From an uncultured Bdellovibrionales bacterium (GTDB taxonomy: Bacteria; Bdellovibrionota_C; UBA2361; J135), in contig CAZJXY010000053.1 in the NCBI GenBank assembly GCA_964549925.1, forward strand, positions 1-13,333: a stretch of DNA of 13,333 bases. The letters run 5' to 3'. The notes under the pieces are model-generated. The model made no database searches. It had not been told where the DNA came from and worked only from the letters and a program-made list of their open reading frames with translations. Positions within the stretch are counted from its first letter, which is position 1, and each line of letters opens with the position of its first letter. The translations under genes were made by a program, and so were the position numbers. Shown in pieces: positions 148 to 13,333 of the stretch.

Positions 148-687
148 CTAGCCGATCCTGGCTAACAAACGCACTGGAGCTCCAGTAAAGGCTGATACAA
201 CTGGAACTGGTCCCGGACCGAAAGTGCGATCAATTAATGACGCCCAGCAGAGTACCGGAATCCCACGGAGCGTGGCTTTGTTATGGGCCTCCAAACTGGA
301 CCTGGCAGTGGTGATAACGTCCGTAACCAGAATTGTCTTGTGACCTCTATACTTTTCACCGAAGCCATTGTTCAATTTACTTTCTAAAAACTGCTCCAAA
401 GGGATCTCTTCTGACCCCGGGACGAGCTCACTAAGCACCGCGGCCAATCTTTCGGCAAAAAAGCTAAACCCACCCGGGAGTTTTAAAATCAACTCGGGAG
501 TTTGCGGATGGAAAACATCCAGAATTCTCTCCGCCACATACTGAGCACAGATGTTGAGATCTTCTTCGCTTAGGGCTTCTACGCGGTAATAAATATTACT
601 CTCGCAGCGACTTCCAATTGATACTGGTTCCTCAAACTCTTCAGTGATCCGGCTAAAAATTTCCGCAATCTCTTGATACGATGGCAC
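148..687 (-). CDS. Type I phosphoribosyltransferase, orotate PRTase (PyrE)-like, short form (179 aa)
   Basis: The C-terminal half aligns by eye to PyrE. KTILVTDVITTARSSLEAHNKATLRGIPVLCWASLIDRT matches [40 protein letters not shown], covering the PRPP-binding loop and the following beta strand. The N-terminal SIGSRCESNIYY resembles the PyrE KSGRKSPYFF region. The start is GTG at 685-687, preceded by AAGGAG with a 9-nt spacer on the minus strand. Confidence 0.6.
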   Translation of the reverse strand: MPSYQEIAEIFSRITEEFEEPVSIGSRCESNIYYRVEALSEEDLNICAQYVAERILDVFHPQTPELILKLPGGFSFFAERLAAVLSELVPGSEEIPLEQFLESKLNNGFGEKYRGHKTILVTDVITTARSSLEAHNKATLRGIPVLCWASLIDRTFGPGPVPVVSAFTGAPVRLLARIG

Positions 688-2651: not shown

Positions 2652-2695
2652 CCCAACGATAACCGGTTTTGCTGTCAAAACCGGTTATCGTTGGG
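2652..2695. repeat. Perfect 19-bp inverted repeat with a 6-nt spacer; each arm contains the self-palindromic octamer AACCGGTT
   Basis: cccaacgataaccggtttt (2652-2670), then gctgtc (2671-2676), then aaaaccggttatcgttggg (2677-2695). The second arm is the exact reverse complement of the first. It lies 16 nt upstream of the GGAGG SD of the downstream gene. No U-tract follows on either strand. Confidence 0.7.
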
Positions 2696-2722
2696 TATTC
2701 CAAAATTCTCGGAGGTTTTCTC

Positions 2723-5164
2723 TTGGCGAACAACTCTTCGCAAAAGGCTAGACACCTATCGGTGGTCGATGCGAATTCGCAGCTAGACTCAGCTTCAGAA
2801 CTGATCGGTCGGTTAATATCGATCGAGAGTCTGCAGCCTGGTCACTCGGCCCAACTGAACCGCTACACCGAATTGGCGAAGATTTCTGGAACTATTGTTG
2901 GCGCTGTTTGTGGAGCGGAAAGCTGGGATGTTCGTCCAGTTGTGTTGCGAGCCGGGAGACTTTCAATTTATAGATTTACAAACCCTGCCTGGATCATCGA
3001 ACGAGCCAAACTCGATCACTTTAAAGTCCAGGTTGTACGGATTGGAGTTGAAAAATCAATCTATCTCTCCAGTGGAGAGAATCAGGGTCAAGCTTGGATT
3101 GAACGTCGTTACTTCGACGCGCTACTAGATGGCACCCAAAGCAATCAGCATGCCTTCTTTTCTCTGCATCCAGTAATCCAAGCACAAAATCTAATAACGC
3201 TTGTAGAATCGACTTCACAAAAAGGGATTGTCCACGGACACATTAACGCATCGAATGTCGCGGTCGACGGCGACTCTGCTTACCTAATCGACCACATCTT
3301 CAGATCTGTTGGTAGCAATGCTCAACAAACCGATATCGCACCGGAAGTTAGCGCCGGTCTAGGAGCCTCAAAACAGAGCGACATTTTCGGACTCGGTATC
3401 GTCCTTCGGACGGTACTAGGAACTCAACTTGGATATGATCATTCAGCTCTACTTCAAAAAATGCTTGCGGCGGAACCAAGTCAACGACCAACGTTTAATG
3501 AAATAAAAAGAGCGTTTGGACTCTCCGTGGAGCAGCAGTCGTCTGGTTCGGCGATTAAGGATGATCGCGGAAGAATTATAAATGCTGGTAGTGCTCTGCC
3601 GAGGGGGAAAGTCATTCAACCGGTTGAAGTAAATCTCAGCGCCGCGGTTCAGCCAATCGAAGTTAAACAGATTAGATCCATACCTACCGATCATATTTCG
3701 AAGCAAGTACCCTCCAGCGCTATCGAGAATAAGCAGAGTGTAGAAACAACAAGCGGCTTTGGCTTTGGATTATTAGTATTACTTGGACTCGCTCTGATTA
3801 CGGGACTCACATTGCAGCGTTCGGGGTATCTAAGCTCTAGCGAGAGCGTTACAGAGATATCCGAGCCACCCGCAGTTGCAGCACCAGATGCTTCTAAATT
3901 ATCAGCCCTGTGGTTTAGTTCGCAACCATCTTTGATGAGCGAGGTTGCAAGGCTTGCGGTAAAAAATGGCGATAGAGTTGCACAGTCAGTAATCGTTTCT
4001 CAGGCCCTGTCTGGACGAGAAGTACCAGCAGTCCGATCTGGATTAATCGCCACTGCATTCGATCCGGCTTGGGAGGCACAGTTGAGCGAAAGCGACCGGC
4101 GGCTTGCGATAGGGTTGGCCACCGCAGCAATCGCACCTGATAACTTAGTTGACCTTCCGGAACTTGGCACAGCCCATGCGGGAGTTGTCTTAGCTATGCT
4201 AGTCCAGATGGAGCCCCAGAGCGGATCTAAGGAACTTGCGGCCATTCCCGTCGGTACATTGGCTGTTTTACCCCAGCCCTACGGTCCGGCCTTTGCTGCG
4301 CTCCAGCGCGAAGGTGTAGGCTCAGTTGATGAGGTATCAGCGCAAGCGTTAGCCCATATCTTAAGGAATGGATTATCGCCTGAGTTAATTAAGATATTTC
4401 TGGCCGAGAATCCGCTTAAAAAACTGCTGATCATATTGCCGATGCTCTCCTCCAAAGGACGAGAGGCTCGAGAAGAGGTATGGAAGGTTATCTCGGAGCA
4501 TAATGATCTAAGATCCTTTACGGAGTGGTTTGCGCAAGAAAAGGCTCCAGAATGGGACAAAGTTGCCCCAGAACAGAAGCTCGCATTGGTAAGCGGCATA
4601 GTTATCACCGAGGGGTTAAACCAGCTTCAGATTGCAGATTTGATCACATTCCCTTCAGCTACAGTAAGGGCCGCTGCGAAAACAGCCTTAATTACAAAAT
4701 TGGGCAACTCAAGCCAGAAATTTTTGGAGTTCTTGCTCTCCCCATCAAATCGCCTAGATCGAGGCAGGGTACTGGCGCTCTTAACTACACTGATGTTGCC
4801 TGAAGAGGACGCCACCGCTTTGCTAATGAACTGGTTTGCCAAAAATCCAGACGCTGCGAGTATCGCTTCTATTCTGGTCTCTCGAAATGGCTTAAGTGAG
4901 ACGGACCAGTTGAGTGAGCAGGCCGCTGATTATCTACTAAAACTAAAATTTAAACCGACACTACCTCAGATTAAAGCTCTCTCTACCCACCCAGTCCCAC
5001 TTGCAAGAACGGTCGCCTACGTCAATCTGAATCCGATCGATCCTAAGGAACGCTCGCTACTACTTAATATGGCTAAAACAGAGCAGGATCCTAAGATTCG
5101 AGAAGCAATCCAGGCCAAAATAAAGATGGGCGACGAGATAAGGGCACTAAATCAAGCCCTCTAA
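2723..5164 (+). CDS. Single-pass membrane protein: N-terminal degenerate Ser/Thr protein-kinase-like domain (predicted pseudokinase), TM helix, C-terminal HEAT/PBS-lyase-like repeat domain
   Basis: The ORF track opens at TTG 2669. That TTG sits inside the palindrome and has no SD. An in-frame TTG at 2723 has GGAGG (2711-2715) with a 7-nt spacer, so I prefer it as the start.
- Kinase fold: a Gly-rich loop ISGTIVGAVCGA, then VVLRA in place of VAIK, with Lys replaced by Arg.
- Catalytic loop IVHGHINASNV in place of HRDLKPSN, at 3233-3241. The Asp and the Lys are both lost.
- LIDHIF in place of DFG, at 3290-3298.
- APE and the following DIFGLGIVL are retained, at 3338 onward.
- TM helix FGFGLLVLLGLALITGLTL at about 3755-3817.
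- A C-terminal domain of about 450 aa with repeated xxVRxAAxxALxxLG-type helix pairs, for example ATVRAAAKTALITKLG, PLARTVAYVNLNP and DPKIREAIQAKIKMG. Confidence 0.75.
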   Translation: MANNSSQKARHLSVVDANSQLDSASELIGRLISIESLQPGHSAQLNRYTELAKISGTIVGAVCGAESWDVRPVVLRAGRLSIYRFTNPAWIIERAKLDHFKVQVVRIGVEKSIYLSSGENQGQAWIERRYFDALLDGTQSNQHAFFSLHPVIQAQNLITLVESTSQKGIVHGHINASNVAVDGDSAYLIDHIFRSVGSNAQQTDIAPEVSAGLGASKQSDIFGLGIVLRTVLGTQLGYDHSALLQKMLAAEPSQRPTFNEIKRAFGLSVEQQSSGSAIKDDRGRIINAGSALPRGKVIQPVEVNLSAAVQPIEVKQIRSIPTDHISKQVPSSAIENKQSVETTSGFGFGLLVLLGLALITGLTLQRSGYLSSSESVTEISEPPAVAAPDASKLSALWFSSQPSLMSEVARLAVKNGDRVAQSVIVSQALSGREVPAVRSGLIATAFDPAWEAQLSESDRRLAIGLATAAIAPDNLVDLPELGTAHAGVVLAMLVQMEPQSGSKELAAIPVGTLAVLPQPYGPAFAALQREGVGSVDEVSAQALAHILRNGLSPELIKIFLAENPLKKLLIILPMLSSKGREAREEVWKVISEHNDLRSFTEWFAQEKAPEWDKVAPEQKLALVSGIVITEGLNQLQIADLITFPSATVRAAAKTALITKLGNSSQKFLEFLLSPSNRLDRGRVLALLTTLMLPEEDATALLMNWFAKNPDAASIASILVSRNGLSETDQLSEQAADYLLKLKFKPTLPQIKALSTHPVPLARTVAYVNLNPIDPKERSLLLNMAKTEQDPKIREAIQAKIKMGDEIRALNQAL
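3755..3817 (+). other. Predicted transmembrane helix of the pseudokinase protein
   Basis: Twenty-one consecutive hydrophobic or small residues, GFGFGLLVLLGLALITGLTLQ, flanked by polar sequence. It is the only such segment in the 831-aa ORF. Confidence 0.6.
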
Positions 5165-5249
5165 AGCAGTTGCAATCTCTCTCCCCAAGTCCTATCTATA
5201 CCCATCGGTGTATTATTGGTTAACCATATACGGTTAGATTTGGAGTGTT

Positions 5250-6023
5250 ATGGCACTTGTATCATTTCAGTTCGTAGAAAAGCAGGTTGGTCTTTTGACT
5301 TTCAATGACCCCGAGCGGCTTAATGCTATGGGAGAGGAGATGGCCAGTGAGTTTAAAGAGGCGATCTCGATGCTTTCTCGCGAAAAGAGTCTAAGGGTTC
5401 TAATTCTCAGCGGAGCCGGTCGCGCGTTTTCTGCCGGTGGCGATCTTGATATGTTGGAGAGAAAAACAAAACTCGCTGGTGAGGAGAATCGGCTAAAGAT
5501 GCTGGAGTACTACCGCTCGTTTCTGAGCATATTAGATCTTAATGTGCCTCTAATCGCTGCGATTAACGGACACGCAATAGGAGCAAGTCTGTGTCTTGCT
5601 TGTGCTTGTGATATTCGTATCGGGTCGGATAAAGCCAAGTTTGGGCTGACTTTCACCAAATTAGGACTCCATCCGGGGATGGGTGCAACATACTTGGTCT
5701 CACGAGCAGGCGGCGCCGCTAACGCTAATCTTTTGATGTTGACTGGAAGGACGGTTGAGGCAAGTGAGGCTCTTAGAATGGGGTTACTCTCGGAGGTCGT
5801 TGCACCGGAGAAGGTAATGGATCGAGCCAAGGAGGTTGCCGCTGAGATTTTAAGCTGTGCTCCTGAAGCGACTAGGCAGCTGCTTGGATCGTTGCGTCAG
5901 AATATTCCGAATTTAAATAGCGCTCTTGAACGAGAGGCTCTAGCTCAAAGTATTAATTATGCAGGGGCCGAGCTCAAAGAGGGTGTCAAAGCAGTTAAAG
6001 AGAAGCGATCCGCCAAATTTTAG
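5250..6023 (+). CDS. Crotonase-fold (enoyl-CoA hydratase/isomerase family) protein with non-canonical active site
   Basis: It has the crotonase oxyanion-hole motif RAFSAGGDLD. It aligns without gaps to E. coli PaaF over GHAIGASLCLACACDIRIGSDKAKFGLTFTKLGLHPGMGATYLV against [44 protein letters not shown]. The two catalytic Glu positions are Cys115 (codon tgt, 5592-5594) and Phe135 (ttc, 5652-5654). GGAG lies 5 nt upstream of the ATG. Confidence 0.85.
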   Translation: MALVSFQFVEKQVGLLTFNDPERLNAMGEEMASEFKEAISMLSREKSLRVLILSGAGRAFSAGGDLDMLERKTKLAGEENRLKMLEYYRSFLSILDLNVPLIAAINGHAIGASLCLACACDIRIGSDKAKFGLTFTKLGLHPGMGATYLVSRAGGAANANLLMLTGRTVEASEALRMGLLSEVVAPEKVMDRAKEVAAEILSCAPEATRQLLGSLRQNIPNLNSALEREALAQSINYAGAELKEGVKAVKEKRSAKF

Positions 6024-6046
6024 TATTAGCGTAAGGAGAACAAGAG

Positions 6047-7003
6047 ATGGAAGCATTTATCCCAGTAATGGTGGTAGTCGGATTGCCGCTTTTAATCATT
6101 TTGGCTTTCTCGTTTTATACTGTACAGCAGCAATCATCTGCTATCATTGAGCGCTTCGGAAAGTTTCAGCGCATTGCCGGTCCGGGGCTGAATTTAAAAA
6201 TCCCAATCATCGATCGAATCGCTGACCGAGTAACATTGCGGCTTCAACAGCTCGATGTTCGGATTGAGACTAAGACCGAAGATAACGTCTTTGTAACGAT
6301 ACTAGTCTCGGTTCAGTATTTCGTTAAGCCTGATCGGGTTTATGAGGCACACTACCGGCTTACGGATCCAGGTGCTCAGATTACTTCGTTTGTTTTTGAT
6401 GTGGTCAGAGCCAGAGTTCCGAGAATGAAGCTTGATGACGTTTTTGAGAAGAAAGATGAGATTGCTGATGCGGTGCGATCCGAGATCTCGGCGGTGATGG
6501 AGGAGTTCGGATACGGAATAGTAAAAACTCTAGTTACAGATATTGAGCCTGATGGTCACGTCAAGGCCTCTATGAATGAGATTAATGCGGCGCAGCGGAT
6601 GCGTGTTGCTGCTGTCGAGCGAGGAGAAGCTGAAAGAATCATGAAGGTCAAAGCCGCTGAGGCTGAGGCTCAGAGCAAGGCGCTTCAAGGAAAGGGTATC
6701 GCTGATCAACGACGTGCGATTGTAGATGGTCTAAGAGAATCGATCGATCACTTTCAAAAAGCCGTTCCGGGTGCGAGCGCTCATGATGTGATGAATTTAG
6801 TATTGATGACTCAGTACTTCGATACCATTAAGGAGCTGGGGCATGCTTCGCACACCAATACGATCTTGCTACCGCATTCACCGGGTGGATTGGGAGATCT
6901 GATCTCGCAGATTCGGCAGACTTTAATCAGTTCAAATTTAGTAAGCACCCAAGGAATGGAGAGGGTTGCCGACGGCGAAGTGCCGAAGATGAAGCAGTGG
7001 TAG
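6047..7003 (+). CDS. SPFH/band-7 (stomatin/HflC/prohibitin-like) membrane protein
   Basis: The N-terminal TM is FIPVMVVVGLPLLIILAFSFYTV. The SPFH-domain signature IIERFGKFQRIAGPGLNLKIPIIDRI follows. A C-terminal charged coiled-coil stretch rich in Ala/Glu/Arg reads AQRMRVAAVERGEAERIMKVKAAEAEAQSKALQGKG. A strong AAGGAG SD lies 8 nt upstream. The gene starts 23 bp after the crotonase stop. Confidence 0.85.
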   Translation: MEAFIPVMVVVGLPLLIILAFSFYTVQQQSSAIIERFGKFQRIAGPGLNLKIPIIDRIADRVTLRLQQLDVRIETKTEDNVFVTILVSVQYFVKPDRVYEAHYRLTDPGAQITSFVFDVVRARVPRMKLDDVFEKKDEIADAVRSEISAVMEEFGYGIVKTLVTDIEPDGHVKASMNEINAAQRMRVAAVERGEAERIMKVKAAEAEAQSKALQGKGIADQRRAIVDGLRESIDHFQKAVPGASAHDVMNLVLMTQYFDTIKELGHASHTNTILLPHSPGGLGDLISQIRQTLISSNLVSTQGMERVADGEVPKMKQW

Positions 7004-7006
7004 TTA

Positions 7007-7783
7007 TTAAAATAGGTGGCTGAGTGAAGGGAGCACGGTAACTCTACCAGGGTAACGTTTGCTGAGCTCTACGACACTTTGATCATGAATACGTGGAACA
7101 ATGATCATCTGGCCAATCGATCTTTGCAGCAACGCCTCAGCCGGCTCCACTCGATCTTCAAATCCAAGTACTGTAGAGGGAGGATGTCCTTCAAAGAGCT
7201 CGTCCCAATAGCGTTGCTCAGTCTTTTCAAATTCAGTGTCGTCAGAGCAGCGAAGATCTTTAGGTTTGAGATAAGCGTCTAATCCAACCAGACTAATTTC
7301 AAGCTCAGCAATCGCTCGAAGAGATCCGGTACAAACCTTGAATGGCAGACCGCAGCTTGCAACCCGTTGTGCGACCATATCGGCACCATCACATAGCGAG
7401 GGATTAGCGTCACCAATCATCTTTGTTTCCTGAATGTATTTGGCGACAAAGGAGAATTGTTGAGCGAAGTCATCAGCGCAGACGCCCAGGGTTTCATTCC
7501 CGCCACAGTCAGCGAAAACCATACGCAAAAGCTTTTTATAAGATATGCCGCGATTTTGAATAAAGGAATTCCGGGCGATTTCCTCATCCCCGCCCAATGA
7601 TCGCACTGTTTCCATAAACAAACGCCGGTGTAATCCGTTGGGCTTAACTAGGAGGTGATCTAGGTCGAGAATGACTTTCGATGCTCGCAGCAGCAAACGC
7701 TCAAGTTCGTTTGATCGGATACTGTGCTCGGCTAATGAGTGATCCTCGGACTTTGAATTGGTGGTGAGATGCTCTCTATACAT
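7007..7783 (-). CDS. HAD-superfamily subfamily IA hydrolase, Sdt1/YjjG-like 5'-nucleotidase family, with degenerate motif I
   Basis: - Motif I region VILDLDHLLVKPNGL matches FDLDNTLY...GL. Both Asp are kept, but Asn-Thr is replaced by His-Leu.
- Motif II FKVCTGS is followed by LGLDAYL, matching IFTNG...LGL..FD.
- Motif IV-like LGFEDRVEPAEA corresponds to FDDS.RN..A.
- There is no SD at the ATG 7783, so the exact start is uncertain.
- The stop lies 3 bp after the convergent SPFH gene stop. Confidence 0.5.
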   Translation of the reverse strand: MYREHLTTNSKSEDHSLAEHSIRSNELERLLLRASKVILDLDHLLVKPNGLHRRLFMETVRSLGGDEEIARNSFIQNRGISYKKLLRMVFADCGGNETLGVCADDFAQQFSFVAKYIQETKMIGDANPSLCDGADMVAQRVASCGLPFKVCTGSLRAIAELEISLVGLDAYLKPKDLRCSDDTEFEKTEQRYWDELFEGHPPSTVLGFEDRVEPAEALLQRSIGQMIIVPRIHDQSVVELSKRYPGRVTVLPSLSHLF

Positions 7784-7848
7784 CAGCTGTTTACGCTCGA
7801 CAAAAATTCTGGGTAACTTCGGCCAATTATGATAGATATTCGCCGAGG

Positions 7849-9261
7849 ATGCTAAGCTTTATTTTAAACGACAGAGAGGTTCAAACCGAAGCTTCTCCGG
7901 CGATGGTACTGGCTGATTTCGTGCGAGTCGAACGAGGCCTAGTTGGAACTAAGCTTGCCTGTCGAGAAGGGGACTGTGGGGCTTGTACGGCGTTGGTGGG
8001 GGAATTGAATGGCGCGAACCTTTCGTATCGCGCTGTAACATCCTGCATATATCCTCTCGGGAACGTAGCTGGAAAGCACGTAGTAACAATCGAAGGTTTA
8101 AATCAAATGGAGATTACCCCCATTCAGCAGGCTATCGTTGCTAGCGGTGGGACCCAATGTGGATTCTGTACACCAGGCTTTGTGGTCGCCTTGACAGCGC
8201 TATTTCTCAAAAAGAGAGAATTTGATCCGACTAGCGCTTGTGCCGAACTTGATGGAAACATTTGCAGGTGTACCGGTTACAAATCAATCGAACGAGCAGT
8301 CGAGAAGTTGTCCGAACAGTTTGGGTCTAACTCAAATCTTGATCAAGATAGGATTGATGAGCTTGTAAAATGGAATATCCTGCCTAGCCAATTCCTTGGA
8401 ATATCAGCGCGACTCGGCGCGCTAAATCAGGTCCAAAAAAAGATTTCAAATATTTCTGAGCGCAAAATTGTAGGCGGTGGGACGGATCTATATGTCCAGA
8501 TACCTGAGCAGATGCTTGAAAAGGAGATATTTCTATCAAGGGAACGGCAGAAGCTAAAAGGCATTAAATTTAAGGGTGGAAAGTGTACCATTGGAGCAGC
8601 CACAACTCTTGAGGAGCTGCGTGAGTCTGTGGAATTAAATACGGCGATTCCGAGATTGAGCGAGTATCTAAAGCTGTTTGGCTCGACCCCGATTCGACAG
8701 ATGGCGACAATCGGAGGAAATCTGGTTAATGCTTCCCCAATTGGTGATTCAACCGCGCTATTTTTAGCTCTAGATTCGGAAATTATAGTGGGAGATAACG
8801 AGCGAACGCGGGAACTAGAGCTTAAAGATTTTTACTTAGGGTATAAGAAGTTAGATCTGAAGAAGGGGGAGATGGTTCTAGCACTGCGATTTTCTATTCC
8901 TACTGCTACATCAAAGATCAATTTTGAAAAGGTGTCGCGAAGAACCTATTTGGATATTGCCAGTGTTAATTCGGGAATCCATTTGAAATTGCAATCTGGG
9001 AGAATCACTGCTGGCACAATCTCGGCCGGTGGTGTTGCCCCGATTCCGATGGTCCTAAGCGAGGCATCGAAGTTTTTATGCGGCAAGGAAGTAGGAATTA
9101 CCACAATAAAAAAGGTTGTGGAGATTGCCCAAGTCGAGATTTCTCCAATCTCTGATGTGCGCGGAACGAGCGAGTACAAACGCCTGCTTCTGAGACAGCT
9201 TATTTATGCTCATTTTATCAATTGTTTTCCGGAAAAAGTTTCCCTTGGGCAATTAATATGA
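7849..9261 (+). CDS. xdhA: Xanthine dehydrogenase small subunit (2Fe-2S ferredoxin-like, [2Fe-2S] helical and FAD-binding domains), XdhA
   Basis: - First cluster, plant-type ferredoxin cysteines: CREGDCGACT...SC.
- Second [2Fe-2S] cluster: CGFCTPGF...CRCTGY.
- FAD/CO-dehydrogenase flavoprotein domain: IVGGGTDLYVQ, with the downstream ATIGGNL.
- The 470 aa length is typical of XdhA. Confidence 0.9.
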   Translation: MLSFILNDREVQTEASPAMVLADFVRVERGLVGTKLACREGDCGACTALVGELNGANLSYRAVTSCIYPLGNVAGKHVVTIEGLNQMEITPIQQAIVASGGTQCGFCTPGFVVALTALFLKKREFDPTSACAELDGNICRCTGYKSIERAVEKLSEQFGSNSNLDQDRIDELVKWNILPSQFLGISARLGALNQVQKKISNISERKIVGGGTDLYVQIPEQMLEKEIFLSRERQKLKGIKFKGGKCTIGAATTLEELRESVELNTAIPRLSEYLKLFGSTPIRQMATIGGNLVNASPIGDSTALFLALDSEIIVGDNERTRELELKDFYLGYKKLDLKKGEMVLALRFSIPTATSKINFEKVSRRTYLDIASVNSGIHLKLQSGRITAGTISAGGVAPIPMVLSEASKFLCGKEVGITTIKKVVEIAQVEISPISDVRGTSEYKRLLLRQLIYAHFINCFPEKVSLGQLI

Positions 9262-11522
9262 CGAACGTTGACGGCTTTGGGCATACGCGCGGCGATTCGC
9301 TTTTCATCGACGATATCCCACTTCTTAATGGCACTCTGTTCGGAGTGCCATTTCCGGCTCCCGTAGCCCATGCCAAGATAAAGAAATTAGATTTTTCGAA
9401 AGCTGAAAAGCTTCCTGGAGTGGTCAAGGTGCTAAGCGCCAGAGACATTCCGGGTGTAAATCAAATCGGTGGAATCTTCCCGGATGAGCCTCTGTTTGAT
9501 AATCACGAGATTCATTATCGTTGCCAACCCCTGGCATTAGTCATCGCTGAAAGTGAAGCACAAGCTAGAAAGGCTTTATCCGCTATAGTTCTTGAGTACG
9601 ACGAACTAACCCCGGTAATAGATCCGCGCGAGGCCGCACGTCTCGGATTACTGATCATGCCGCCTGTGACTTTTGCCTGCGGCGATATCGAAAGCATCTG
9701 GTCTAAGTGTGATCTTGTGGTTGAAGGAAGCACAGAAAGCGGCGGCCAAGAACACCTTTACTTAGAAACTCAAGGTGCGATCGCATCTTTGACAGAAGAT
9801 GGCGGAGTGACGATTACTTCCTCCACTCAAGGACCGACTGCAGTGCAGCGCGCTGCGGCCCAGGTGCTTAACCTTCCGATGCATAAGATTGAAGTTTTGG
9901 TGCATAGATTAGGGGGTGGTTTTGGGGGAAAGGAGGATCAAGCAACTCCTTGGGCAGTTATGGCTGCGCTTGGGGCTTTGATTTTGAAACGTCCGGTAAA
10001 AGTAGTGTTGCATAGAATTGAAGATATGCGCATGACCGGTAAACGCCATCCCTATTCTTCGGATTATAAGATTGGACTCACTAACCAAGGAAAAATCCTA
10101 GGCTACGAGGTTAGCTTTTATCAAAACGCTGGAGCGCACGCGGATCTCTCCCCGGCGATTCTCGGACGAACCCTCTTTCATGCCAACAATACCTACTTTA
10201 TCCCCAATCTTAAGGCTACGGCTTACAGCTGTAAGACCAATCTGCTTTCTAACACTGCCTTTCGCGGTTTCGGCGGGCCGCAAGGGATGTTTGTAATCGA
10301 GGCTGCAATTTGTCACGCTGCGCGAAAACTCGGGAGAAGACCAGCTGACATTCAAGAATTGAATTTACTTAAAGATGGTGACTCATTCCACTACGGTCAG
10401 TCGGCGAAAGCGTGCACTGCTGGAAGATGCTGGAAGAGCTGCCTGGAACGGTATAAATATGCGGAGGAAAGGGAGAGAGTAGATAGATTTAATCGTGAAA
10501 ATTCAGTCTACAAGAAGGGACTGGCGGTAATGCCGATCTGCTTCGGAATTTCATTTACCAAAACGCAGATGAATCAGGCCAGCTCGCTTGTACATGTATA
10601 CACTGATGGCAGCGTGGGTGTAACGACGGCGGCTGTAGAGATGGGACAGGGGGTTAACACAAAGCTAGTAGAGGTTGTATCGCGGATCCTCTCAATTTCC
10701 CCTAGACGCGTGAGGATTCAGACCACATCCACAAATAAAATAGCCAACACATTTCCCTCTGCCGCTAGTGCTGAGTCCGACTTGAATGGAAATGCCACGG
10801 CGATTGCTTGTCGGCAGATTAAGCAGAGGATGTTGGACGAAGCGGCATATGTGCTGGGTGAAAGCGGCTCATCTGGCATCGAACTAAAAGATGAAGTCTT
10901 TTACTCACGCCTCAAAAAGCGAGGGGTGAGTTGGCACGAAATTTTGGAGTCTGCGCATAAGCGCAGAGTTAATCTCTCAGCGCATGCTCATTACGCTACC
11001 CCTGATATCCATTTCAATCTTGAAACTAAGAAGGGCGAGCCTTTTGCCTACCATGTTTATGGCACTGCGCTGGTTGAAGTAACCGTGGATTGTCTGCATG
11101 GAACCCTAAAGATAGATTCAGTGCAGCTTGTTCATGATTACGGAACATCGATTGATCCGATTACCGATCTAGGTCAAACCGAAGGAGGATTAGTTCAGGG
11201 TCTTGGTTGGATGACCCTTGAAGAGGTGGTTTATAATAACCAGGGGAAGCTATTAGCCGATACTTTCTCGAGCTATAAGATTCCGGACATGAACTTTGCG
11301 CCGACTAGGCTTGAGGTGCATTTTCTCGAGAATTCCCATAATCCTGTAGGGGTGCTGGGATCTAAAGCTGTGGGCGAGCCGCCTTTAATGTACGGCATCG
11401 GCGCTTACTTTGCAGCCGAGGAAGCGATTCGTGCCTTTCGTCCCGGTGTCAAACTCAAGGTTCATGCTCCGATGACAAACGAGCGAATATTACTCTCTCT
11501 TTATCAGTCCGATCTGGATTAA
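9258..11522 (+). CDS. xdhB: Xanthine dehydrogenase molybdopterin-binding large subunit, XdhB
   Basis: The ATG at 9258 overlaps the xdhA TGA (ATGA, 9258-9261). The ORF-track start at 9222 is an upstream TTG. The N-terminus MTNVDGFGHTRGDSLFIDDIP matches the XdhB start. Mo-co motifs GGGFGGKE, AFRGFGGPQG and C-terminal GEPPLMYGIGAYFA are present. Confidence 0.9.
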   Translation: MTNVDGFGHTRGDSLFIDDIPLLNGTLFGVPFPAPVAHAKIKKLDFSKAEKLPGVVKVLSARDIPGVNQIGGIFPDEPLFDNHEIHYRCQPLALVIAESEAQARKALSAIVLEYDELTPVIDPREAARLGLLIMPPVTFACGDIESIWSKCDLVVEGSTESGGQEHLYLETQGAIASLTEDGGVTITSSTQGPTAVQRAAAQVLNLPMHKIEVLVHRLGGGFGGKEDQATPWAVMAALGALILKRPVKVVLHRIEDMRMTGKRHPYSSDYKIGLTNQGKILGYEVSFYQNAGAHADLSPAILGRTLFHANNTYFIPNLKATAYSCKTNLLSNTAFRGFGGPQGMFVIEAAICHAARKLGRRPADIQELNLLKDGDSFHYGQSAKACTAGRCWKSCLERYKYAEERERVDRFNRENSVYKKGLAVMPICFGISFTKTQMNQASSLVHVYTDGSVGVTTAAVEMGQGVNTKLVEVVSRILSISPRRVRIQTTSTNKIANTFPSAASAESDLNGNATAIACRQIKQRMLDEAAYVLGESGSSGIELKDEVFYSRLKKRGVSWHEILESAHKRRVNLSAHAHYATPDIHFNLETKKGEPFAYHVYGTALVEVTVDCLHGTLKIDSVQLVHDYGTSIDPITDLGQTEGGLVQGLGWMTLEEVVYNNQGKLLADTFSSYKIPDMNFAPTRLEVHFLENSHNPVGVLGSKAVGEPPLMYGIGAYFAAEEAIRAFRPGVKLKVHAPMTNERILLSLYQSDLD

Positions 11523-11526
11523 AGTT

Positions 11527-12729
11527 ATGTTAGAGAGTAGTCAGCTTTGGTTTGAGTATTTACTTCGATTCGCACACCTTGTTGCTGGAGTGATTTGGAT
11601 TGGTGAAAGCTTCTATTTTATCTGGTTAGATAGTGCTTTTACTCCGCCGCAAAATCCAAAGAAAAACGTCGATGGTGAAGTATTCATGGTTCACGGCGGA
11701 TTCTATTATCAGGTTGAAAAGAGAAGAATTTACCCGGGGGAGCTTCCGAACTATCTGCATTGGTTTAAATGGGCGGCCACTTCCACTTGGCTCACAGGCT
11801 TTTTGCTGTTTGTGGTGCTTTATTACTCACGCGGTGCTTCTCTATTAGTTGCACGTGCGTCTCCATCCCCCTTGCTGCCAAGTGGCATGGGCCAAAGCGG
11901 AGCGATCTGCATTAGCATGGGGCTGATATTGGTCTCTTGGATCGTATACGACTTAGTCTGGCATCCCAAGCTTTTGGAAAAAGAGCTATTTAAATCAAAA
12001 CGCTTAAGCTCACTTCTAACCCTGAGTTACTTTTCGTTATTGATCTATCTTTGCACCGAACTTTTTAACGGCAGAGGTGCATTTATCCAGATGGGTGTGA
12101 TCTGGGGAACGATGATGGTCTTAAACGTTTGGATCAGGATCCTTCCCAATCAAAAGCGCATGTTAAATTCAGCGGAAAATGGAGAGGTCCCTGATTACTC
12201 TCTGGGGTTAAAGTCAAAGACGAGATCGGTTCACAATACTTATTTCATCTTTCCTGTACTCTTAATCATGTTGAGTAATCATTTTCCAGGCATCACGGAG
12301 CATGCTCAGAATTGGCTGTTGCTCATTATCCTCTCCGTTTCAGGGGCTCTAGTTAGACACGCAATGGTGGCAAAAGATAAGCGCCAGCGCTGGACATTAC
12401 TTCCGGCAGCGCTCGGTTTACTCGCGCTGGTTTGGATGACTCAGCCCACGCGCGCCACAATACTAGATGATCATTTGGCTCGTCCCACTTATGCGGAGGT
12501 TGCAGGAATTATTTCGAATCGATGCCTTGCTTGTCATAGTTCCAACAACACCGACGATCTTTTTAAATTGGCGCCAAACGGAGTGTTGCTTGAGGACGAA
12601 TCCCATGTTCTTGGCTTGCTTCCGCGAATTTATCAACGGGTCTTTGTGGATCGCACTATGCCGTTTGGGAATAAGACCGGAATAACTGAGGAGGAGCGTG
12701 AAAAGTTAGCCCGATTTAGTAGACCCTAA
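11527..12729 (+). CDS. puuD: PuuD-type membrane urate hydroxylase with C-terminal cytochrome c domain
   Basis: The ATG lies 4 nt after the xdhB stop. The N-terminal polytopic membrane domain WFEYLLRFAHLVAGVIWIGESFYFIWLD resembles PuuD. There are several TM segments. A single C-terminal heme-c motif CLACH lies at 12523-12537 (NRCLACHSS), followed by a Met-containing segment RTMPFGNKTG. Confidence 0.75.
   Translation: MLESSQLWFEYLLRFAHLVAGVIWIGESFYFIWLDSAFTPPQNPKKNVDGEVFMVHGGFYYQVEKRRIYPGELPNYLHWFKWAATSTWLTGFLLFVVLYYSRGASLLVARASPSPLLPSGMGQSGAICISMGLILVSWIVYDLVWHPKLLEKELFKSKRLSSLLTLSYFSLLIYLCTELFNGRGAFIQMGVIWGTMMVLNVWIRILPNQKRMLNSAENGEVPDYSLGLKSKTRSVHNTYFIFPVLLIMLSNHFPGITEHAQNWLLLIILSVSGALVRHAMVAKDKRQRWTLLPAALGLLALVWMTQPTRATILDDHLARPTYAEVAGIISNRCLACHSSNNTDDLFKLAPNGVLLEDESHVLGLLPRIYQRVFVDRTMPFGNKTGITEEEREKLARFSRP
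12523..12537 (+). other. CxxCH heme c attachment motif within PuuD
   Basis: tgc ctt gct tgt cat encodes CLACH. It is the only CxxCH in the ORF. Confidence 0.7.
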
Positions 12730-13333
12730 TTCGGTTGATTCCACCGTCAGGAAAAACCTTCACCTTTATAAATCCCACCGGCTCGCGATTGTCTATCAAG
12801 AATTCCCTTGTATTTCCGGCAAAAGCCTTGACCTCAGATCTTTTAACCAAATCTCTCCATGAGCCCGCCTCTAGCGATTGCGCCCCAAGAATCTCTATCG
12901 CCATCGGATTATTATTTACGAAATATGTAAAATCAAAGACTATTGAACTTATCGGTGCGATCTTTCCCCCTAATTTGATCACCAGCTCCTCATAATGTCC
13001 GGGAATCCTGCTTCGCGCGGACTCAAACCCGTCAAACATATGTAGAGGGACAAACGGAGAAATAACTTGCGAGGCCGGGCCGTAGTGCTGGTTGGAAACT
13101 GATACTACCTCTCCACCATAATTTAAGTTAGCTCGATCCAATTTTCCGGATCCAAGATACTTGCCGATGGGAAGCGTAAGCTTTAGGGTTAGCGGCTTTT
13201 TTGATTTTGGAAGCGCGCGATCGAAGCGTCTCGGCTCGGCGGAATTGATAACTTTGAACGCGGCTGAAAGATCACTCGACAATTCAGCAAAGAGTCCCAG
13301 TCGAGAAAGACCACCGTCCGGATACATTTCAAT
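12716..13333 (-). CDS. alc: Allantoicase (allantoate amidinohydrolase), 3' part; gene continues beyond the window end
   Basis: The protein ends ...FPDGGINRIRVY*. A second PDGGLSRLGLF lies about 190 aa upstream and DGFESAR lies between them. This fits the two-repeat allantoicase architecture, where each repeat ends in PDGG.sRhR. The frame is still open at the window edge: IE precedes the apparent Met. The gene overlaps the puuD 3' end by 14 bp in convergent orientation. Confidence 0.55.
   Translation of the reverse strand: MEMYPDGGLSRLGLFAELSSDLSAAFKVINSAEPRRFDRALPKSKKPLTLKLTLPIGKYLGSGKLDRANLNYGGEVVSVSNQHYGPASQVISPFVPLHMFDGFESARSRIPGHYEELVIKLGGKIAPISSIVFDFTYFVNNNPMAIEILGAQSLEAGSWRDLVKRSEVKAFAGNTREFLIDNREPVGFIKVKVFPDGGINRIRVY

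Follow-up and report, generated by a model that had tools for sequence, protein, structure and literature searches.

A crotonase-superfamily gene and an SPFH gene adjacent in an uncultured Bdellovibrionales bacterium are probably independent neighbours rather than a conserved pair

The 13,333-nucleotide (nt) stretch of DNA analysed here (hereafter the window; contig CAZJXY010000053.1 of assembly GCA_964549925.1, from an uncultured Bdellovibrionales bacterium) carries on its forward strand a gene for a protein of the crotonase superfamily followed at once by a gene for a membrane protein of the SPFH/Band-7 type. A first-pass annotation of this DNA had proposed that the two could form an analogue of the NfeD-stomatin pair, with the crotonase standing in the position of NfeD. 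The reading that we favour, at a probability of roughly 80%, is that the crotonase and SPFH genes are functionally independent, that each is conserved in its own right, and that they were brought together by a lineage-specific rearrangement rather than inherited as a conserved module, being probably co-transcribed where they now lie. This independence is indicated by the absence of the pairing from either side of the comparison (0/80 crotonase loci and 0/86 SPFH loci) and by the fact that the gene order shared with the closest relative of the window stops at the crotonase stop codon.

Seen from the crotonase side, the association with SPFH has no counterpart. Eighty genome loci containing relatives of the crotonase were collected with up to 6 kb on each side (67 of them reach at least 1 kb downstream), and a tblastn search of these with all eleven proteins of the window returned only the crotonase itself, so that an SPFH homologue was found in none of them. 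The immediate downstream neighbours are heterogeneous, a Pfam tally yielding NDK in 7/70 cases and glycosyltransferases in 3, and Band_7 is absent among the 25 Pfam families most frequent in these downstream neighbours. Upstream, the same kind of tally gives the UbiD family in 10/73 and FtsZ in 9/73. No neighbour conserved across phyla that would reveal the pathway of the crotonase was found among the crotonase loci.

Some of the upstream arrangements recur within particular groups. In 13 loci detected by tblastn, all of them from Bdellovibrionota (L002, L003, L006, L007, L009, L010, L012, L013, L015, L016, L018, L020 and L022), the crotonase is preceded, usually at a distance of 60-350 nt, by a divergent gene for a UbiD-family decarboxylase (~590 aa). 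This gene is absent from the window and from its closest relative, and the arrangement could reflect shared ancestry only. In another subset of loci (within L029-L080, mostly labelled Myxococcota), murB-ftsQ-ftsA-ftsZ lie directly before the crotonase on the same strand (e.g. L030, 3095-5833). The FtsZ cluster is present in 26/80 crotonase loci, and a literature search on an ftsZ-adjacent hydratase found nothing useful.

The closest relative (locus L081, with a crotonase 74% identical to that of the window) allows the edge of the conserved block to be placed precisely. Five genes follow one another in the same order in both, encoding a phosphoribosyltransferase-like protein (83% identity), a 140-aa open reading frame (ORF; 71%), IspG (84%), a protein of 806 aa in one and 831 aa in the other (45%) and finally the crotonase. 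The common gene order extends exactly as far as the stop codon of the crotonase; in L081 a 918-aa gene on the opposite strand comes next, and the remaining 6 kb of that locus contain no SPFH, HAD-like or xdh gene. The adjacency of crotonase and SPFH genes therefore shows no conserved synteny across genomes, an outcome that the first-pass annotation had itself named as speaking against its proposal.

The picture from the SPFH side is the same. In 86 loci encoding homologues of the SPFH protein (59-78% identity; 56 with at least 900 nt upstream), no crotonase of any type was detected by tblastn at E<=1e-3, a search that would also have picked up generic crotonases. Among 118 immediate neighbours of these SPFH genes, any one Pfam family is seen at most three times, and both NfeD and ECH are absent among the 13 families seen in at least two neighbours. 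The two closest contexts (78% identity) have the SPFH gene followed by genes for an SH3_3 protein, an M48 peptidase and a CHASE2-guanylate cyclase, with divergent unrelated genes upstream, and in Paludisphaera borealis the SPFH homologue lies amid C1-transfer genes. The same downstream genes (SH3_3, M48 peptidase and CHASE2 cyclase) as in L082 and L084 are also found in L085. The closest SPFH homologues are preceded at ~60 nt by a 36-codon ORF (L082, 4832-4942; L084, 211-321), which has no counterpart in the window.

In the window itself, the crotonase and SPFH genes are probably co-transcribed in the source genome, since they are on the same strand and the 23 nt that separate them contain no terminator-like site. 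Both ORFs are where the first-pass annotation had placed them, and the gap and the Shine-Dalgarno sequence before the SPFH gene are likewise confirmed: the crotonase stop codon, TAG, occupies 6021-6023, the SPFH gene begins with the ATG at 6047, and the AAGGAG of the spacer stands 8 nt before that ATG. A scan of 5050-7900, including the spacer, revealed no terminator-like or forward-strand promoter sites. To call the two genes translationally coupled, as had been done, is an overstatement, as they do not overlap and each has a Shine-Dalgarno sequence of its own. A promoter (TTGCAA-17-TATCTA) had also been suggested upstream of the pair at 5173-5201. These hexamers actually lie at 5170-5198, with a -10 hexamer showing 3/6 matches; they were left unflagged by the promoter scan and are not conserved in L081. 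Within the window no forward-strand ORF of at least 80 aa follows the SPFH gene, the next gene being convergent.

That the upstream gene encodes a true crotonase, as previously noted, is clear. Its only Pfam matches at E<=10 are ECH_1 and ECH_2, and an AlphaFold2 model has the standard crotonase fold (predicted local distance difference test score 92.9), with Foldseek template modelling (TM) scores of 0.85-0.93 to solved crotonases and top-50 matches that are all CoA-dependent crotonases. The protein has the motif FSAGGDLD at residues 60-67, and its HMMER alignment with the Clostridium crotonase 5z7r is gap-free. Both oxyanion-hole segments are intact (FSAGGDL at 60-66 and GAS at 111-113), also without gaps against the solved enzymes. 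Placement below the level of the superfamily, for which the first-pass annotation had suggested profile searches, is less definite: 73 NCBIfam models match the crotonase, none at its cut-off (best NF004525, 199.9 against 285 bits), and the scores of the family profile against solved structures are near equal for hydratases and for PaaG-type isomerases (2ej5, 182 bits; hydratase 5zai, 171; 1uiy, 171; Thermus thermophilus PaaG, 169; Escherichia coli PaaG, 167.5).

The active site, in contrast to the fold, departs from that of the known enzymes. Catalytic glutamates of hydratases are 20 residues apart (Glu144 and Glu164 in the rat enzyme), and the same canonical spacing separates Cys115 and Phe135, which occupy these two positions in the window protein (GASLC opposite GGGCE, and GLTFT opposite GQPEV, of 5z7r). 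The replacement of both hydratase glutamates by Cys and Phe, reported in the first pass, is thus upheld by the alignment. A third position can be added: in the alignment with three PaaG-type structures (T. thermophilus PaaG, E. coli PaaG and 2ej5), the catalytic Asp of their GLvPDsG motif is opposite Gly143 of the window crotonase. Asp136 has a catalytic role in PaaG (PMC7497051, PMC9493321). An acidic residue is therefore found at 0/3 of the acid/base positions used by known hydratases and isomerases of this crotonase branch (Cys115 at the first Glu, Phe135 at the second, Gly143 at the PaaG/ECI-type Asp/Glu). As all three positions are non-acidic while the oxyanion hole is intact, the protein is probably not an enoyl-CoA hydratase, and the earlier suggestion that it carries out other CoA-thioester chemistry or is non-catalytic appears reasonable on sequence grounds.

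These replacements are a conserved trait of a family. At E<=1e-10, a protein database search with the crotonase recovered 5350 proteins; the top 120 (54-74% identity) come chiefly from Bdellovibrionota or Oligoflexia metagenome bins. Cys115, Phe135 and the stretch His141-Pro-Gly-Met144 are invariant in 47 of these homologues, as are Thr134, Cys120, Arg123, Gln233 and Tyr237. In a wider set of 81 sequences from many phyla (the 80 best loci, at 41-62% identity, plus the window), Cys115 is retained in 79/81, Phe135 in 81/81, His141 in 79/81 and Pro142, Gly143 and Met144 in 81/81, the conservation of His141 and the PGM that follows it being here partly by construction, as they belonged to the search pattern that defined the set. 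Phe60, Gly63, Gly64 and Leu66 are found in 80/80, and Ala62 in 79/80, of the sequences spanning the first oxyanion-hole stretch. A sequencing error or local mutation at Cys115 or Phe135, a further possibility raised at first, is ruled out, both residues being family-wide. A scan of one genome per species located relatives of the crotonase in at least 588 bacterial species, the phyla and groups represented including Bdellovibrionota, Myxococcota, Nitriliruptoria, Xenobia, Binatia, spirochaetes and Pirellulaceae.

More distant members came from a profile search that used no pattern, run against 1.84 billion representatives and yielding 150 top clusters. About 140 of these 150 keep Phe135, Gly143-Met144, Met84, Tyr88, Glu229 and Gln233, and Phe135 taken alone is present in ~145. 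Cys stands at position 115 in 92 of the 150 distant representatives, the others having Ala, Gly or Ser there, and His stands at position 141 in ~105.

A few members were also observed in eukaryotes: the choanoflagellate Salpingoeca rosetta (PTSG_10087, P0248), the oomycete Aphanomyces astaci (P0290) and the chytrid Globomyces (P0315 and P0409). These proteins bear N-terminal presequences, which would be consistent with a general metabolic role; that of Salpingoeca is an Arg-rich extension resembling a mitochondrial presequence. Salpingoeca retains the full signature (GAGLC, TFAKLGLHPGM); in A. astaci and Globomyces it is changed in part. One chytrid protein (P0315) appears as a fusion of the crotonase with a membrane-anchored short-chain dehydrogenase, which could have been a hint of function; it was discounted, since the two halves are separated by a hydrophobic anchor and there is a sister protein of 285 aa, which makes a merged gene model likely.

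What the crotonase does can be discussed only in terms of graded possibilities. The protein is soluble. From established crotonase enzymology, it would bind acyl-CoA and polarise its thioester, and could stabilise a thioester enolate. A reaction needing little acid/base help, such as a double-bond shift or the decarboxylation of an activated thioester, would be compatible with such a site, possibly aided by the clade-specific Cys115 or His141; alternatively, the protein may be a non-catalytic acyl-CoA carrier like EchA6 of Mycobacterium tuberculosis. We would apportion these roughly as a quarter to an enzyme based on Cys and His, another quarter to a pseudo-enzyme and the remainder to other reactions driven by the oxyanion hole.

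The possibility that the crotonase is a true pseudo-enzyme, binding or shuttling acyl-CoA, is a tentative one. It would account for the non-acidic state of all three known acid/base positions, for the retention of the oxyanion hole together with hydrophobic pocket residues (Met84, Tyr88, Phe135 and Met144), and for the fact that no family-specific polar side chain is universal, the distant members having Cys, Ala, Gly or Ser at 115 and varying at 141. A precedent exists in M. tuberculosis EchA6: this crotonase is non-catalytic, serves as a shuttle for fatty acyl-CoA and is without the residues for hydratase catalysis (PMC5964476). The near-invariance of Cys115 and His141 within the orthologous group (79/81 for each) would, however, suit catalytic residues, and crotonase enzymes are known to relocate theirs. 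EchA6 is moreover outside the 60 best solved-structure matches of the window crotonase, and there is no evidence that would connect the window family with fatty-acid synthase or with essentiality.

We regard as equally tentative the possibility that the crotonase works as an enoyl-CoA isomerase, or catalyses some other proton transfer, with Cys115 and/or His141 as a new acid/base pair. The PaaG/peroxisomal-type delta3,delta2-enoyl-CoA isomerases (4fzw_C, 6slb/3hrx and the PaaG-like 2ej5) have the crotonase fold in common with the window protein and resemble it in several respects: a residue other than Glu at the first Glu position, Phe at the second, Tyr88, and Glu229...Gln233 in the C-terminal helix. 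The PaaG-like 2ej5 is also the best profile match among solved structures. Cys115 is exactly at the first-Glu position, His141 is two residues before the position of the PaaG Asp, and both are near-invariant in the close family. Unlike PaaG, in which Asp136 lies within GLxPDxG, the window crotonase has Gly143 at this position, invariant as part of HPGM, and no paa gene context is seen. The isomerase proposal is further weakened by the replacement of both Cys115 and His141 in many distant representatives, by the share of the search pattern in the conservation of His141, and by the profile scores (167-182 bits for the two types, with true hydratases at 167-171), which indicate no specific kinship with PaaG. 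The classical enoyl-CoA hydratases (rat ECH 1dub, M. tuberculosis EchA8 and Clostridium 5z7r) have the same fold (TM 0.87-0.91) and the same oxyanion-hole motifs; they differ in having glutamates where the window crotonase has Cys115 and Phe135.

The SPFH protein also has a clear identity at the superfamily level, having an SPFH domain and an N-terminal membrane anchor. A transmembrane helix (~3-25, with a hydropathy maximum of 2.79 at residues 3-21) is followed by the SPFH domain (25-196) and an Ala/Glu-rich helical C-terminal part. Among solved structures it is closest to E. coli QmcA (E 9.6e-22, residues 3-291) and then to HflK. The HflK/HflC models score far below their cut-off (TIGR01933, 76.7 against 159.4 bits), and the gene is single, with no second SPFH ORF nearby. 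The alignment with QmcA is end to end; QmcA differs in having YbbJ, the window SPFH being without an NfeD partner.

Over 282 aa, the SPFH protein has 52% identity (E 7e-105) with a reference sequence that we take to be of plant HIR1 type, and whose Cys6 and Cys7 agree with the acylation sites of HIR2. Those acylation sites have been described (PMC13157961). This suggests that the gene is of a bacterial HIR type, with a transmembrane helix in place of the lipid anchor of plant HIR (acylated at an MGNLFCC N-terminus). The protein is held in the membrane by its single N-terminal helix and, by analogy with QmcA, HflK/C and plant HIR2, would form a large ring-shaped scaffold; in the genomic settings where it is usually found it needs no NfeD-like partner. 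Its best 120 homologues (65-78% identity) include Planctomycetes and Thermoanaerobaculia. Relatives are also encoded on more than 560 stretches of metagenome DNA, with identities of 59-70% for the best 80.

The idea of the crotonase as a lineage-specific substitute for NfeD at the SPFH ring, acting either as an acyl-modifying enzyme at a membrane microdomain or as a scaffold, survives poorly. Like NfeD/STOPP proteins (NfeD1a, and NfeD1b with its ClpP-type protease domain), the crotonase is encoded immediately upstream of an SPFH gene and on the same strand, with the short gap, the strong Shine-Dalgarno sequence and the terminator-free spacer described above, and ClpP and crotonase belong to one fold superfamily in SCOP. 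One distant member of the crotonase family also faintly matches NfeD1b_N over a 40-residue stretch, below threshold (22.5 bits against a cut-off of 40); this match reflects only the superfamily kinship of ClpP and crotonase. Unlike NfeD proteins, however, the window crotonase contains neither the NfeD OB-fold (PF01957) nor an NfeD1b ClpP-type domain in its Pfam matches, has no Ser-Lys protease signature and has no membrane segment, its maximum 19-residue hydropathy (1.7) falling on a buried core strand/helix (99-120). Its fold matches, as noted, are to CoA enzymes, the SPFH type of the window has no recurrent neighbour of any kind, and the pairing is seen in none of the loci examined from either side, including that of the closest relative. 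A published survey of SPFH proteins in prokaryotes reports NfeD partners for the subfamilies SPFH1, 2 and 5 only, and NfeD1b has a ClpP-class domain (PMC2636767). No paper in the literature searched mentions both SPFH and crotonase. We therefore consider it very improbable that the crotonase substitutes for NfeD, and a recruitment in this one lineage as a cytoplasmic partner of a HIR-type SPFH ring seems just as improbable, although the probable co-transcription of the two genes leaves it some room in this single genome.

Some points nevertheless weigh against an interpretation of the crotonase and SPFH genes as independent, and against a firm view of the crotonase family. Neighbouring genes on one strand with a 23-nt gap are usually expressed together, so that a local functional link is conceivable. 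The sample contains only one close relative (74% identity), and the pairing could persist in near relatives outside it. As for the crotonase, its active-site geometry is derived from alignments only. No solved structure of a family member was found, the best matches being generic crotonases at ~30-35% identity; as far as we could find, the family has no curated or characterised member. The variability of Cys115 and His141 in distant members also makes a catalytic role for these residues uncertain.

Other genes of the window are listed with the features of the pair in Table 1. The 831-aa ORF upstream of the crotonase, called a pseudokinase in the first pass, has weak kinase-related matches (TCAD9, E 3.8e-4; StpK7, E 2.6e-3). 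Its 806-aa homologue (45% identity) is at the same place in L081, between IspG and the crotonase, and no homologue was found by tblastn in the other 80 crotonase loci. The 179-aa ORF has no Pfam match; it contains a phosphoribosyltransferase-like ILVTDVITTARS motif and shares 83% identity with the first gene of L081, which is truncated. On the other side, the convergent 258-aa ORF ends 3 nt past the SPFH stop codon and has a weak match to HAD_2 (E 0.0022, below cut-off), and the scan of 5050-7900 found no terminator-like site between these two convergent genes. A purine-catabolism cluster lies beyond. In it, an XdhA-like gene (Fer2, FAD_binding_5 and CO_deh_flav_C) and an XdhB-like gene (MoCoBD) overlap, and a PuuD-type membrane urate oxidase (Urate_ox_N, E 1.4e-86) is accompanied by a convergent allantoicase fragment.

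Table 1. Positions in the window of the crotonase and SPFH genes, their signals and motifs, and other genes
Feature	Position	Strand	Basis
Crotonase-superfamily ORF, 257 aa	5250-6023	+	Pfam ECH_1, E 4.1e-54, residues 11-257
SPFH/Band-7 ORF, 318 aa	6047-7003	+	Pfam Band_7, E 3.7e-30
GGAG, Shine-Dalgarno-like, 4 nt 5' of crotonase ATG	5242-5245	+	Read from sequence
Spacer between crotonase and SPFH genes, 23 nt, with AAGGAG at 6033-6038	6024-6046	+	Read from sequence
Codons F60-S-A-G-G-D-L66, first oxyanion-hole/CoA-thioester motif	5427-5447	+	Aligns to FxAGxDL of solved crotonases
Codons G111-A-S-L-C115, second oxyanion-hole turn, Cys115 at first catalytic Glu	5580-5594	+	Opposite GGGCE of 5z7r
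Codon Phe135, second catalytic Glu position	5652-5654	+	Opposite Glu of GQPEV in 5z7r
Codons His141-Pro-Gly143-Met144, Gly143 at PaaG catalytic Asp136	5670-5681	+	Aligned with GLvPDsG
179-aa ORF	148-687	-	
831-aa ORF	2669-5164	+	
258-aa ORF	7007-7783	-	
Purine-catabolism cluster	7849-13327		
Overlap of XdhA-like and XdhB-like genes, 40 nt	9222-9261		

The analysis thus reveals no new SPFH partner system, the substitution of a crotonase for NfeD being unsupported; if it were true, a lineage-specific recruitment would represent a new class of operon partner for SPFH proteins, one that connects the binding or chemistry of acyl-CoA with a membrane microdomain. Bacterial proteins closely matching plant HIR would be widespread, though recent plant papers describe HIR proteins as plant-specific. 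The crotonase family, for its part, has lost every acid/base residue of its known relatives and kept the thioester-binding site. That it has a new chemistry or a pseudo-enzyme role is conceivable, at somewhat less than even odds, and is more likely than a lineage-specific partnership with SPFH. The family may catalyse an undescribed reaction or be a widespread pseudo-enzyme, and would be a target for enzyme discovery or for the study of pseudo-enzymes.

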